This document shows positions 33,201-39,200 of a stretch of 64,000 nucleotides of DNA, in pieces. Made by a program: the position numbers. The first letter of the stretch is position 1, and each line of letters starts with the position of its first letter. The stretch lies in assembly GCF_024502345.1 (NCBI RefSeq), contig NZ_JALDNN010000001.1. One strand, written 5' to 3'. This DNA is from Escherichia coli. Lineage in GTDB: Bacteria > Pseudomonadota > Gammaproteobacteria > Enterobacterales > Enterobacteriaceae.

Positions 33201-36200
33201 ATCGTGGTGGTGTAGCTGCCTGCGTGAGTAAAACGACCAAATGCGCGCGTTTTGGGGGGATTGGTTGTGCTACCGTCCCAGGTTACGGTCAGTGATGGAT
33301 AGACAAAAAGACCTTGTTTGCGGGCGTTTTCATCAGGTAATTCGCCACTTGTAATATAGTTGCCAATGGCGTTGCGTAATGCGACTACAGATTGCTCATA
33401 CAGCGCGTCGAGTTTATCCAGTGCCTGAGCTGGGGTCAGACCGGAGCCCTTATTATTCATGTGTGTCTCCTGTTCCATACAATTACCGCACATCCGATAG
33501 TATGTCACAGAAATGTGAAACAAAAGTGTAAGGCGAAGATCGGATGATCTTCGCCAGGCTATCAAGCGCGTTGACTGTCTTTCATCAACAAAGCGGTCAT
33601 TGCGGAAATCAGGCATCCAGCCAGCAAATAAATGGCGACGCTATGCCAGTTCCCGGCAAAGTAAGTGATGAGTGCAGCGGCAATAAAAGGTGTAAATCCA
33701 CCGCCAACCACACTGGCAACCTGATAACCGACTCCAGCGCCACTATAGCGATAACTGGCACCAAACATTTCGGTAAACATCGGTTGTTGCACACACACCA
33801 CCATGTCATGCGCAATGTTTGCCAGCATTATGGAGAAGAAAACTATCCAGAAAATAGATTGTGCTTCAAGCGCCATAAAGAAAGGAAATGCGCTCAACGT
33901 TCCGATTAACGCACCTGTGATATAAACCCTACGGCGACCAAAACGATCGGCAAGCCAGGCAAAACAGGGAATTGTCAGGCAGCTTAATCCACCTACCAGC
34001 AAACCAATATTAAGGAAAAGTTCGCGCGGTAGCCCCATATTCTGGGTTGAATAATTAAGTGCAAAGGCAGTAACGATGTACATCGTCAGCAATTCGCACA
34101 GTCGTAGCGCAATAATCTTCAGGAAAGCACCGGGATGTCGTAACAGCGCTTCGATAACCGGGATGCGTTTTTTCGCTGCAGCTTGATAATGTTGCTGTTG
34201 TTCAAATTCCGCGGACTCCTCCATGCCATTGCGCACCCACAATGCTCCCAGTACCAGTACGATGCTAAACAGGAAAGGAATGCGCCAGCCCCAGCTTAAA
34301 AACTGTTCGTCAGTCGTCATCATACTGATCAATGAAACCAGTCCGGTTGAAAGCAGTAAACCTACACCGTAGCCAACTTGTACACCGCTACTGTAAAAGG
34401 CTTTTTTATTTTTCGGTGCACTTTCAACGGAAAGCAACGCCGCGCCTCCCCATTCGCCGCCGACTGCAAATCCCTGAATGGCACGCAGTGTCACCAGCAA
34501 AATAGGTGCCCACCACCCAATGGTCGAGAATGAAGGAAGAATACCAATCAAGGCTGTCGCGATGCCCATCATCCAGACGGTCAGCATTAACATGCGCTTA
34601 CGTCCCAGTCGGTCGCCAAAGTGACCGAAAATGACACCGCCGAGCGGACGGAAAAGGAATCCGACGCCAAAGGTAGCAAATGCGGCGAGCGTTCCCATCG
34701 CCGGGCTTACTTGCGGGAAAAACTCGCGATTAAACACCAGTGCGGCGGTGATGCCATAGAGTAAAAAATCATACCAGTCGACGACGGCACCAGCGAAGCT
34801 GCCTAACGCAGCTCGTCGGGCGCGACTTAACGAAAGCGTCCCTTCATCGGGACGAGTGGAGATGAGCGTGGAGTCCATAATGATCCTGTTTGTACTGTCT
34901 TTTTATAATTAGTATGGAAAAGGTAACTCACATTGCCGTCGATCTATAAACGAACCTTATGAGACTACCTCGACAGAGCGCATCTGCAAATGATTTTATG
35001 GCTGATTAGCGGCAACATGAAAAATTCGATGGAAGATGAAAGCGCAGGAGTTGCTGGTGTTGTTTAAGGATTAAGCAGAGGACCCACAGGTTAGAGATAT
35101 GAAACATAAAAGTCCGCATATGCACAAAATGGCACCCTGATGAGTCTGATAGACTGCATTGCATTATAACCAGTAGGGAGGCGAGGTTAGGTATGTTTTT
35201 AGCATCATTGTTGAGACGTATTGCATTTAGTTACTACGATTATAAAGCTTATAATTTCAATATTGAAAAAACAGACTTTGTTGTCATCCATATTCCCGAT
35301 CAGATTGGCGATGCTATGGCCATCTTTCCTGTTATTCGGGCGCTTGAATTGCATAAAGTTAAGCATCTTTTAATTGTAACGTCGACAATTAATTTAGAAG
35401 TCTTTAATGCGCTTAAACTTGAACAGACTAAATTAACATTAGTCACAATGACTATGCAGGATCACGCAACATTAAAAGAAATAAAAGATTTAGCAAAGAA
35501 CATAACACAGCAATACGGTACGCCGGATCTTTGCATTGAGGGGATGCGTAAAAAGAACCTGAAAACGATGTTATTTATCAGTCAGTTGAAAGCAAAAACG
35601 AATTTTCAGGTTGTTGGTATAACCATGAATTGCTTCTCCCCTTTGTGCAAGAACGCGTCCCGTATGGATCAGAAACTCCGGGCTCCCGTACCTATGACAT
35701 GGGCATTTATGATGCGTGAGGCGGGTTTTCCAGCAGTCAGGCCAATATATGAATTGCCACTAAGTGAGGATGTACTCGATGAGGTGCGCGAGGAAATGCG
35801 ATCGTTAGGATCTTACATTGCGTTCAATTTAGAAGGTAGCTCGCAGGAACGTACATTTTCGGTGATGCTGCCAACTTACTGATTTAGTGTATGATGGTGT
35901 TTTTGAGGTGCTCCAGTGGCTTCTGTTTCTATCAGCTGTCCCTCCTGTTCAGCTACTGACGGGGTGGTGCGTAACGGCAAAAGCACCGCCGGACATCAGC
36001 GCTATCTCTGCTCTCACTGCCGTAAAACATGGCAACTGCAGTTCACTTACACCGCTTCTCAACCCGGTACGCACCAGAAAATCATTGATATGGCCATGAA
36101 TGGCGTTGGATGCCGGGCAACCGCCCGAATTATGGGCGTTGGCCTCAACACGATTTTCCGCCATTTAAAAAACTCAGGCCGCAGTCGGTAACCTCGCGCA

Positions 36201-39200
36201 TACAGCCGGGCAGTGACGTCATCGTCTGCGCGGAAATGGACGAACAGTGGGGATACGTCGGGGCTAAATCGCGCCAGCGCTGGCTGTTTTACGCGTATGA
36301 CAGGCTCCGGAAGACGGTTGTTGCGCACGTATTCGGTGAACGCACTATGGCGACGCTGGGGCGTCTTATGAGCCTGCTGTCACCCTTTGACGTGGTGATA
36401 TGGATGACGGATGGCTGGCCGCTGTATGAATCCCGCCTGAAGGGAAAGCTGCACGTAATCAGCAAGCGATATACGCAGCGAATTGAGCGGCATAACCTGA
36501 ATCTGAGGCAGCACCTGGCACGGCTGGGACGGAAGTCGCTGTCGTTCTCAAAATCGGTGGAGCTGCATGACAAAGTCATCGGGCATTATCTGAACATAAA
36601 ACACTATCAATAAGTTGGAGTCATTACCATGCCCCATATCTCCACATTCACTGTACAGTGACCCGATGCCTCGGGAACTACAGTGGTTTAAATAGTTTGC
36701 TCTGGGGAGCGTGTAGCCATTGCTGCTGCAAAAATTTTCAGCAAGGCTGTATATCATGAAAGCCTCGCCGGCGTTCACCCACCAACTCTTCACACGGATT
36801 TCGTATACATAGCTAGGGCCTCCTGATTTTGGCGTCGCCGTAATCCTTTCCGAATTGCTGCCGACATTTTTAAATGTCACTTTACCGGTAGCATCAACAT
36901 CGACCCAGGAGGCAGAGCTTGAAAACTCATAATCAGCCGCCGTTTTTCCTGGGGCAAAGTTGTCATTATTCAACTGATAATACGCCCCGGTGAATCCCTG
37001 CGAAGGGAATGTAGTTGTCGGTAGGTCAGTACCATTGACTGACACTGTACCGCTCATTATTTTGTCTTCTGCGCGAGTGAATTGTATTGTGGTACTCAGA
37101 CCAGCTTGATGAACACCATTCAATACAGGGATCAGCGTTGCGATACCCTCTCTGCCGCCTGTAACAGTGGCTTTGTACTCGCCTGAGAAATTTTTACTGT
37201 AGTCAATTGCACTAACTTGCACATAGGGCACGTTGGTACCTGACTGCACAAATTCCAGCCCTTCAGAAACTTTGATCGGATTGCCTGATATATCGTGCAG
37301 AACAAGATGTAGCTCAGCACTATCGGTAAAGTCTCCTTTCAATGATGACCGATTGTTCTTAAGGACTGACTTTGAGGCGTCTGCCGGGCCTGCCACCAGC
37401 GTTATATCTACTGTTTGCATTCCACCAGCGGTCGTGACTGCGCTTACCGTGACGCTACCTGTCATCGCTCCTTTCACGCTTGTTGTCGCGATTCCGTTTT
37501 GATCTGTCACCGCTGTTAATGACGTTAATGTGGCAGAGCCGCTTTTTAAGGCGAAGTACACAGTTAAACCTTCGATCAGGTTACCACTGCCATCCTCAAC
37601 CGTTGCCTTTAAGGTACTTAAATCAGTGTTGGTGGCGGCGATAGTCGATGGATCAGCGATAAAGCTAGCAACATGGGCGGTACTTGAGTTGCCAGTGACT
37701 TTCACGATTGTCTGTGTCTGTATTGTTACACCGTTATGGAACGATGCAGTCACCGTATATGTACCGACTTTATTGCTGGTCAGAACGACTGGAGCCTGAC
37801 CTGAAGAGTTGGTTCTCACTTTTCCGCCACTTAACGTCGCACCTTCTGGCGTTACGCTAAAGTTGATGACCTGACCCTCCACTGGAGTGCCATTTGCAGA
37901 AGTTAGCGTTGCCGTCAGAGTTGCACCTGTTGGGGAATTGACACCGATAAGCGGGCTGGACGCCGAGAGTGTCAGTTTTTGATCGATTACCACCAGATCC
38001 TTCTCATAAGAGGATCCATTCGCCAGGGATGCTTTCACCATATACGAACCGTTTCTTTCGGGCGTCATAGTGACCTCGGCTATACCATGCGTATCAGTAG
38101 AGACAATATTTTGGCTGATGGTCATGTGCTCTGGTGGTTCTGCACTGAATGTTACAGATTCATTAAGAATCGGATTGCCAAACTGGTCGTTGACGTGAGC
38201 TTTAACTGCTACGTCTTGTGCGACCATGACCTGACCTTCAGGTATCTCCAGACTGGTAATCGTTGCAGAATTAATATCTGCTTTTGCATTCAGTAATCGC
38301 GAGATGACTTCAGTAGGTTTATCTGCCAGAGAGGCTGAAACTGTTTTCAGTCCGACTGATGTAGCCCCCTGAAACACCGGACAGTAGCTGTATCTCCAGA
38401 TAAGAGATAGGCTTGAATATATGTCTAACACTAACGCCAATTTTGAGATGACCGGGATCCTGTTAGGGCAAGAAGTCCGTAAACGTAAAACTCCTCAGGA
38501 GAAGATCGCCATTATCCAGCAGACGATGGAGCCGGGTATGAATGTCTCCCATGTCGCCCGCCTGCATGGTATCCAGCCCAGCCTGCTGTTTAAGTGGAAG
38601 AAGCAATATCAGGAAGGCAGCCTCACCGCCGTTGCGGCTGGAGAGGAAGTCGTTCCTGCTTCTGAGCTTACTGCTGCTCTGAAGCAGGTCCGGGAGCTTC
38701 AGCGCCTTCTGGGCAAGAAAACGATGGAAGTTGAGATCCTGAAAGAAGCCGTGGAGTACGGTCAGTCGCGAAAATGGATAGCGCACGCGCCCTTGTTGCC
38801 AAAGGACGGGGAATAGCCATGGTCAGCCGGACCATGGGCGTGTCGCGTGCGCAACTGTCACTGCGGATTAACCGTTCTGCCGACTGGCAGGACAGGCGCT
38901 GTAACCGGCGTAATGAAGAAGCAGACGCAGAAATACTGTCGGCTATCCTCAACATTATCAGCGATATGCCGAGTTATGGTTATCGACGCGTGTGGGGCAT
39001 CCTGCGCAAGCAACGTCGCACAGAGGGACAGCCACCTGTGAATGCCAAACGGCTTTACAGGATAATGAGCGAGCATAACCTGTTGTTGTTGCATCACAAA
39101 CCAGAGCGACCGAAGCGTGAACATAAGGGCAAGATAGCGGTGGCAGAAAGCGATATGCGCTGGTGTTCAGATGGCTTCGAGTTCGGCTGCGACAACGGCG

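Follow-up and report, generated by a model that had tools for sequence, protein, structure and literature searches.

An IS1 element lacking a target duplication between yeeL and yeeJ of Escherichia coli: a probable simple insertion and a later adjacent deletion

Within a 64,000-nucleotide stretch of Escherichia coli DNA (contig NZ_JALDNN010000001.1; hereafter the window), an IS1 element lies between the convergent genes yeeL and yeeJ and is not bordered by the short direct repeat that usually accompanies insertion of this element. Such an arrangement raises the question of how the element reached its present position and what became of the DNA that once surrounded it. The original prediction, made from the sequence alone, placed the element and its borders at 35852-36638, held that it truncates both neighboring genes, and attributed the arrangement to either an IS1-mediated adjacent deletion or recombination between two IS1 copies.

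The element is a complete IS1 of 768 bp on the plus strand (35861-36628), as judged by full-length alignment to annotated copies, by its open reading frames and by profile matching, and is the single IS1 copy in the window. End-to-end, gapless alignments across 768 columns gave 99.5% identity with the IS1 copy of EC21 and 99.1% identity with that of C21-2 (labeled by PGAP as IS1-like, of the IS1B and IS1A types). Since these comparator copies are enclosed by perfect target duplications, of 8 bp (CAAAATGG) and 9 bp (CGTTTATCC) respectively, they fix the boundaries of the window element. The imperfect terminal inverted repeats of approximately 23 bp, IRL at the left end (GGTGATGCTGCCAACTTACTGAT; 35861-35883) and IRR at the right end (complement GGTAATGACTCCAACTTATTGAT; 36606-36628), match one another at 18 of 23 positions. 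Between them lie insA (35916-36191, plus strand) and the insB' frame (36110-36613, plus strand, with its stop codon at 36611-36613), joined by a -1 frameshift motif of the A6C type (TTAAAAAAC; 36165-36173), and the NCBIfam profile transpos_IS1 matches both frames, insA covering profile positions 1-81 and insB' positions 76-199.

The sequences abutting the element bear no resemblance to one another. Specifically, the 9-mer on the left (TACATTTTC; 35852-35860) and the first 9 bp on the right (ATGCCCCAT; 36629-36637) agree at none of nine positions, a result that rules out a degenerated target duplication. No shifted direct repeat of 8-14 bp was found at the IS1 borders either, although a repeat of this kind had been named in advance as grounds for abandoning the original prediction, and the sole word common to the 20-bp flanks, ACATT, occurs at unrelated offsets. 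The absence of a target duplication thus holds as claimed, and the predicted interval does comprise IS1 with its 9-bp flanks, apart from one base too many on the right.

Alignment of the locus to three reference genomes, K-12 MG1655, EC21 and Z1322HEC0005, demonstrates that the window lacks exactly 799 bp at its IS1, corresponding to positions 2051862-2052660 of K-12 and consisting of 385 bp from the 3' end of yeeL, 261 bp of intergenic sequence and 153 bp from the 3' end of yeeJ. The possibility that the reference genes simply end at these positions is ruled out, as in all three genomes yeeL continues for a further 385 bp and yeeJ for a further 153 bp. Both flanks are otherwise collinear with the references, in the same order and orientation, which indicates a local deletion and rules out that distant IS1 copies gave rise to an inversion or translocation. 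The missing reference sequence therefore forms one uninterrupted stretch that begins at the exact end of the element, between collinear flanks, as is expected of an adjacent deletion, and the loss of both 3' ends together with the spacer is as originally proposed.

Each gene is left as a truncated remnant. Truncated yeeL, encoding a family 9 glycosyltransferase, occupies 35193-35860 on the plus strand, as established from its open reading frame and translation and from its collinearity with yeeL of K-12 and Z1322HEC0005; 222 full codons plus 2 nt of the 350 codons are kept, and Ser223 is retained. From its ATG at 35193 the frame enters IS1, where it gains the residues VMLPTY and, 22 bp into the element, meets a stop codon (35880-35882). 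The remnant of yeeJ, encoding an inverse autotransporter adhesin, spans 36629-45809 on the minus strand according to frame analysis and alignments to K-12, EC21 and Z1322HEC0005, and represents the long UMN026-type allele (described in PMC5595812). Its final 50 codons and its stop codon are gone, and its frame runs 81 bp into IS1 before ending at 36548-36550, so that both flanking frames terminate within the element, as had been predicted.

The earlier state of this locus is preserved in a sibling draft assembly, GCA_050022275.1, reached by looking up the 681-residue N-terminal fragment of yeeJ in public assemblies. Three SNPs in approximately 19 kb separate the sibling from the window, and the frameshift in yeeJ is common to both, marking the sibling as a close relative; its IS1 has the left junction and the orientation of the window element. 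Contig 14 of the sibling ends with ...CGTACATTTTC|GGTGATGCTGCC and then the remainder of a 77-bp IS1 left end, while the first 75 bp of contig 22 are the right end of IS1, after which the contig continues through TACATTTTC, 799 bp, ATGCCCCAT and the right flank seen in the window; these 799 bp are identical to K-12 at 797 of 799 positions, and in the sibling, as in the references, they separate ATGCCCCAT from its present neighbor. The interior of the element is unspanned in this draft, and the presence of a single IS1 is deduced from the matching duplication and from yeeL continuing across the two contigs. Together, the two contigs provide what a precursor should: the same insertion site and orientation, an intact duplication and undeleted flanking DNA.

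As the same 9-mer stands on both sides of IS1 in the sibling, the left TACATTTTC of the window is identified as the retained copy of the original target duplication. The 8-9-bp duplication that is a usual hallmark of IS1 is thus absent from the window and present for the same insertion in the sibling; its absence is secondary, the element is still an IS1, and the history of the deletion explains what is missing. The original prediction had further proposed a search of the genome for IS1 copies bearing the matching half of the duplication. That half was found, in the sibling rather than elsewhere in the window's own genome, where a reciprocal search is moot because the reciprocal product of a local deletion would be an excised and lost circle.

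Taken together, these data suggest a history in two steps, which we consider probable: a simple insertion of IS1 into yeeL and, later, an IS1-mediated deletion immediately adjacent to IRR. In the first step, to which the sibling attests, IS1 entered yeeL between codons 223 and 224, its IRL facing the 5' end of the gene, and generated the 9-bp duplication TACATTTTC. In the second, the branch leading to the window lost the 808 bp next to IRR, that is, the right copy of TACATTTTC and the 799 bp beyond it, such that IRR now abuts ATGCCCCAT at a point 51 codons short of the end of yeeJ. Intramolecular transposition is most likely the route of this second step. The IS1 transposase, acting on the element's own ends, may have attacked a target a short distance away in the same DNA molecule; such an attack would keep IS1 and its left flank, join IRR to the new target, and release the intervening DNA as a circle incapable of replication.

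The principal alternative is that a second IS1 in the same orientation once stood at ATGCCCCAT in the 3' end of yeeJ and that a RecA-dependent crossover between the two direct copies removed the 799 bp along with one IS1. Because this route and an adjacent deletion give an identical final sequence, the sequence of the window leaves the two undistinguished, and the surroundings of the locus lend the alternative some substance. Among complete E. coli genomes, the interval formed by the yeeL 3' end, the spacer and the yeeJ 3' end is often hit by IS1, with at least seven distinct same-orientation sites, one of them (in PK-F-10132) inside the 3' end of yeeJ; a transient second insertion at such a target is not far-fetched, and recombination between insertion sequences is a frequent cause of missing target duplications (PMC11708052). 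However, recombination demands one event more than an adjacent deletion, and the second IS1 copy that it requires has left no sign, there being no IS1 at ATGCCCCAT in the sibling or in any of 5,426 complete E. coli genomes (the best of which are 99.4-99.6% identical to the window; the window strain and its clone are not among them). Nor is a clear two-parent mosaic seen in the window IS1 upon comparison with two other copies, from strains other than the window's own: some of its SNPs are in common with the IS1A-type copy and others with the IS1B-type copy, one synonymous change is private, and the pattern as a whole is uninformative. We accordingly regard recombination as unlikely, and parsimony together with the empty right-hand site in the 5,426 genomes makes the transposase the most likely agent of the deletion. 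Of the two routes named in the original prediction, then, it is the adjacent deletion that the precursor favors.

Two further readings have very little probability. IS1 might have arrived together with the deletion, for instance through capture of an insertion sequence at a double-strand break, a route proposed for one IS5 and one IS481 case (PMC11708052) and one that fits an element without a target duplication at the center of a deletion; yet in the sibling an IS1 at the identical left junction and in the identical orientation has the usual 9-bp duplication, and no DNA is missing beside it, so that insertion and deletion must be separate events. Alternatively, a true locus of the form IS1-799 bp-IS1, or a simple insertion like that of the sibling, could have been collapsed or mis-joined during assembly, copies of insertion sequences being classic points of collapse. 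Neither 400-bp window junction occurs in one piece in the 5,426 complete genomes, in which every match of full coverage consists of two pieces and belongs to an IS1 located elsewhere in or near yeeL, and no independent assembly showed the right junction (a look-up of the guessed 594-residue partial product, which is not on record). Against an artefact, independent assemblies bear out the left junction, and a mis-join would have had to end exactly at IRR. Moreover, the window resolves two 100% identical, 1057-bp IS903-like copies that lie approximately 490 bp from each other and have separate target duplications, which argues for a long-read or finished assembly. It should be added that the IS1 insertions apparently common to the whole-region matches proved not to be shared; that of EC21, for example, lies between shiA and yeeL.

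With respect to function, yeeL and yeeJ are both pseudogenes in the window strain, and the consequence of the deletion itself is small because yeeL had already been knocked out by the insertion and yeeJ had already suffered a frameshift. In the lineage of the window, yeeL was intact, with 350 codons, until IS1 inserted, as it remains in Z1322HEC0005 (350 residues); in K-12 the gene is a pseudogene already, with a stop at codon 235. Full-length YeeL matches the Pfam family Glyco_transf_9 over residues 178-321, and truncated YeeL yields no Pfam match. In yeeJ, frame analysis revealed a -1 frameshift at 43801-43804 (minus-strand gene), where the plus strand has a run of four T rather than the five of K-12. 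This lesion predates the IS1 events, and the resulting 681-residue N-terminal product is found in identical form in the sibling and eight other public contigs; its 672- and 653-residue start variants are not on record, and the 1911-residue C-terminal product is on record for the sibling only. The remnant still encodes Big_1, Invasin_D3 and Invasin_D4 domains, and the weak match of reference YeeJ to the Intimin_C lectin domain is gone.

IS1-mediated adjacent deletions arise by intramolecular replicative transposition, and the classical examples are reportedly the gal/IS1 deletions of Reif and Saedler. As in the window, the resident IS1 of the classical deletions persists, DNA disappears between one exact end of the element and a new target, and of the original surroundings one flank survives and the target duplication does not; the window event differs in being short (808 bp when the second target copy is counted) and in stemming from a natural isolate rather than laboratory selection. 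A second parallel is found in the E. coli B long-term evolution experiment, in which deletions associated with insertion sequences lack target duplications and an earlier sample shows the element already in place (PMC11708052). The two-step logic is the same, with the earlier sample and the sibling each showing the element before the deletion, whereas the experimental deletions mostly involve IS150, are much larger and are dated by a series of samples, the order of events in the window being deduced from one sibling genome. The event described here is thus most likely an ordinary, textbook IS1-adjacent deletion of a known kind, involving no new mechanism or system and of little significance beyond annotation; it does furnish a clean natural pair of precursor and product in two nearly identical strains.

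Other IS1 events have occurred at this same locus. Simple insertions into yeeL are found in C21-2, TUM1886 and an ST131 group, and one upstream of yeeL in EC21; these resemble the window in element, orientation and locus, falling within approximately 0.8 kb, and differ in having perfect 8-9-bp target duplications and no loss of DNA. Strains 613, 571 and 774 carry an IS1 whose flanks (GGGAGGCGA versus ACCACCCTC) form no target duplication, and they have lost approximately 811 bp from the 5' part of yeeL; the locus and family are the same, and a loss of similar size abuts the right end of IS1, a parallel that speaks for an adjacent deletion in the window. Theirs is, however, an independent event, in which IS1 lies upstream of the start codon of yeeL, three-quarters of that gene are lost from its 5' side and yeeJ is untouched. 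It could be imagined that the region where yeeL and yeeJ converge with their 3' ends is a recurrent IS1 target with adjacent loss in separate lineages as a result of selection against the YeeJ adhesin and the family 9 glycosyltransferase, rather than of a neutral preference for AT-rich DNA, but we hold this proposal to be doubtful.

The event fits a picture of continuing gene loss to insertion sequences in this clone, in which four such copies have inactivated three genes within 64 kb. This load prompted the thought of a Shigella strain, to which the types present, IS903-like and an IS2-like element common in E. coli, lend no support. One of the four copies is an IS3-family (IS2-like) element of 1336 bp (38357-39692, plus strand) inside yeeJ, which is absent from sibling GCA_050022275.1 and is flanked by a direct repeat of 16 bp (CTGTTTTCAGTCCGAC; 38341-38356 and 39693-39708). 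Target duplications of 15-16 bp were found for this IS3-family element in yeeJ.

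The IS1 element separating the convergent genes yeeL (forward strand) and yeeJ (reverse strand) is complete, occupying 768 bp (35861-36628) with canonical ends (left inverted repeat, IRL, GGTGATGCTGCCAACTTACTGAT; right inverted repeat, IRR, terminating in ...AAGTTGGAGTCATTACC) and containing insA (35916-36191), the A6C frameshift motif (36165-36173) and an insB' frame ending at 36613. Gap-free alignment across all 768 columns gave 99.5% identity to the copy of strain EC21 and 99.1% to that of strain C21-2. Because perfect direct repeats of 8-9 bp (CAAAATGG, CGTTTATCC, GTCTACCGT) border the IS1 copies of EC21, C21-2 and TUM1886 in the respective genomes, the boundaries of the element are not in doubt. 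As originally predicted, the 9-mers bordering the window copy, TACATTTTC on the left and ATGCCCCAT on the right, are unmatched (0/9 positions alike), and no shifted direct repeat was found around the element. No second IS1 was found in the 64-kb window.

Alignment of the flanks with K-12 MG1655, proposed earlier as a measure of the loss, places the end of the left flank at 2052661 and the start of the right flank at 2051861, such that 2051862-2052660 (799 bp) is absent from the window. Of the missing segment, 385 bp comes from the yeeL 3' end and 153 bp from yeeJ (50 codons plus the stop), the remaining 261 bp being the intergenic region; this bears out the claim that the 3' ends of both genes and the sequence between them had been removed. 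The identical 799 bp is also absent relative to EC21 and to Z1322HEC0005, which carries the closest yeeJ allele together with an intact yeeL. Both flanks keep the order and orientation of the references, ruling out inversion or translocation between distant IS1 copies; the event reads as a local deletion, for which a reciprocal IS1 with complementary half-sites elsewhere in the genome would not be expected.

Neither IS1 junction was found in 5,426 complete E. coli genomes, the best of which share only 99.4-99.6% identity with the window. An exact-sequence look-up of the 229-aa YeeL-IS1 fusion product returned four public contigs, each ending within IS1. Two were retrieved, namely JBAOKM010000014 of draft assembly GCA_050022275.1, with 2 mismatches to the window over 10.7 kb, and a Logan contig from SRR31598755 that matches the window without a difference; these independently confirm the left junction. 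Look-up of the 681-aa product of the frameshifted yeeJ led to JBAOKM010000022, also of GCA_050022275.1. In window orientation, the first 75 bp of this contig are IS1 right end, after which come TACATTTTC, 799 bp and ATGCCCCAT in that order; the 799 bp is identical at 797/799 positions to the K-12 segment absent from the window. From ATGCCCCAT on, the contig shares 99.94-100% identity with window 36629-38356 and 39692-46144, and it lacks the IS3-family element in yeeJ. Over ~19 kb, 3 SNPs separate this sibling assembly from the window, and the yeeJ frameshift is common to both. Together, the junction contigs and this near-identity indicate that the sibling carries IS1 at the window's site as a simple insertion, at the same yeeL base pair and in the same orientation, with a 9-bp target duplication and no loss.

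In the order of events, the yeeJ frameshift, common to other public contigs, came first, followed by insertion of IS1 into yeeL, common to sibling and window. On the window branch only, the 808 bp beside IRR (the right TACATTTTC copy plus the 799 bp) was then lost, and this branch also gained the IS3-family element and, in hprR, the two IS903-like elements. The first two steps and the outcome of the third are established by sequence; the manner of the 808-bp loss we infer. The simplest route, and probably the one taken, is classical IS1 adjacent deletion, in which intramolecular transposition would keep the element and one flank while joining the other end to a nearby target. In the long-term evolution experiment, each of the 14 IS-associated deletions that lacked target duplications fitted this explanation, an earlier IS having always been found at the same place (PMC11708052).

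In the main rival explanation, another IS1 would have inserted at ATGCCCCAT and then recombined with the first. This route would leave the same final sequence, in an interval that is clearly a frequent IS1 target, but requires one extra event and an IS1 at the ATGCCCCAT site that none of the 5,426 complete E. coli genomes carries, and we consider it improbable. One-step insertion with deletion is contradicted by the sibling precursor. Collapse of the assembly at IS1 is unlikely because the same assembly separates two identical 1057-bp IS copies ~490 bp apart. The original prediction of either IS1-mediated adjacent deletion or IS1-IS1 recombination was right, and the sibling narrows it toward deletion adjacent to IRR. 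Such an event is well understood and known in kind, and its functional consequence in this strain is negligible.

Among the matches listed for window 35100-36800 in other complete E. coli genomes, same-orientation IS1 occupies at least seven sites spread over the 3' half of yeeL, the 3' end of yeeJ and the spacer between them; IS1 lies within reach of the left flank in 144 genomes, one group including an O25b:H4-ST131 strain, and upstream of yeeL in EC21. A parallel IS1-associated deletion at this locus is found in strains 613 (locus L014, 1933-2700), 571 and 774, where an independent IS1 just upstream of the yeeL start lacks a target duplication (flanks in strain 613, GGGAGGCGA vs ACCACCCTC) and ~811 bp of the yeeL 5' part is gone beside the IS1 right end. 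IS1 favours AT-rich targets, and the yeeL region fits (GC content 38-42% in yeeL, 40% in the deleted block).

Both truncated frames end inside IS1, as had been claimed: that of yeeL (ATG at 35193) stops 22 bp into the element, and that of yeeJ, entering the other end on the opposite strand, stops 81 bp inside. In full-length, 350-aa YeeL, residues 178-321 match Pfam Glyco_transf_9; no Pfam match was found for the 223-residue remnant. In K-12, too, yeeL is a pseudogene, interrupted by TAA at codon 235, 12 codons past the window's junction, whereas this codon is CAA in the window's lineage, in which yeeL was therefore intact before IS1 arrived.

YeeJ, in which a C-type lectin domain makes up the last 103 aa (PMC5595812), has lost the final 50 residues of this C-terminal lectin-like domain. 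Truncation is not what inactivated the gene, which is also frameshifted and carries a 1336-bp IS3-family insertion (38357-39692). The -1 frameshift lies in a homopolymer at 43801-43804 (T4 vs T5 in K-12), and nine public contigs, gut-metagenome assemblies included, encode exactly the same 681-aa N-terminal product; the frameshift is therefore real rather than a sequencing error of the window assembly, and predates the IS1 events. The window's yeeJ is also ~0.9 kb longer than that of K-12 (41707-42601) owing to extra Big-domain repeats, which account for direct repeat D1 (41477-41776 and 42086-42385). This excess matches the 906-bp UMN026-type variant (PMC5595812) and is that known long allele rather than an insertion.

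The IS3-family element is IS2-like, with a two-ORF frameshift arrangement, and has a 16-bp exact direct repeat on both sides (38341-39708). At six other independent sites, on E. coli chromosomes and plasmids, identical copies are bordered by 15- or 16-bp repeats; among the copies compared (loci L007-L012 and L022-L024), a 5-bp repeat flanks one and no repeat flanks another. Set against the 3, 4 or 5 bp of the IS3 family (5 bp in the IS2 subgroup; PMC10045372), a 15-16-bp duplication, equal to 5 bp plus one helical turn, looks unusual. Discrete lengths of ~4, ~15 and ~25 bp are described for the related IS481EU elements (PMC10045372).

Two IS903-like IS5-family elements of 1057 bp each (52007-53063 and 53553-54609), 100% identical and in inverted orientation, lie within the response-regulator gene hprR (yedW; region 51998-54618), which is intact in three related contigs (L016-L018). 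Their inverted repeat opens GGCTTTGTTGAATAAATC. The two are flanked by separate 9-bp target duplications, TCATTGATG and ATACGGTGG, and are therefore independent insertions ~490 bp apart rather than a composite transposon.

In the sibling, genes for RepL-like, H-NS-like, AlpA and DUF6387 proteins, forming a phage- or island-like block (L015, 1-9400), adjoin the yeeJ 5' end. Sibling identity to the window stops at window 46144, inside the tRNA-Asn copy preceding mtfA, which suggests that these otherwise near-identical strains differ in an integrative element at asnT.
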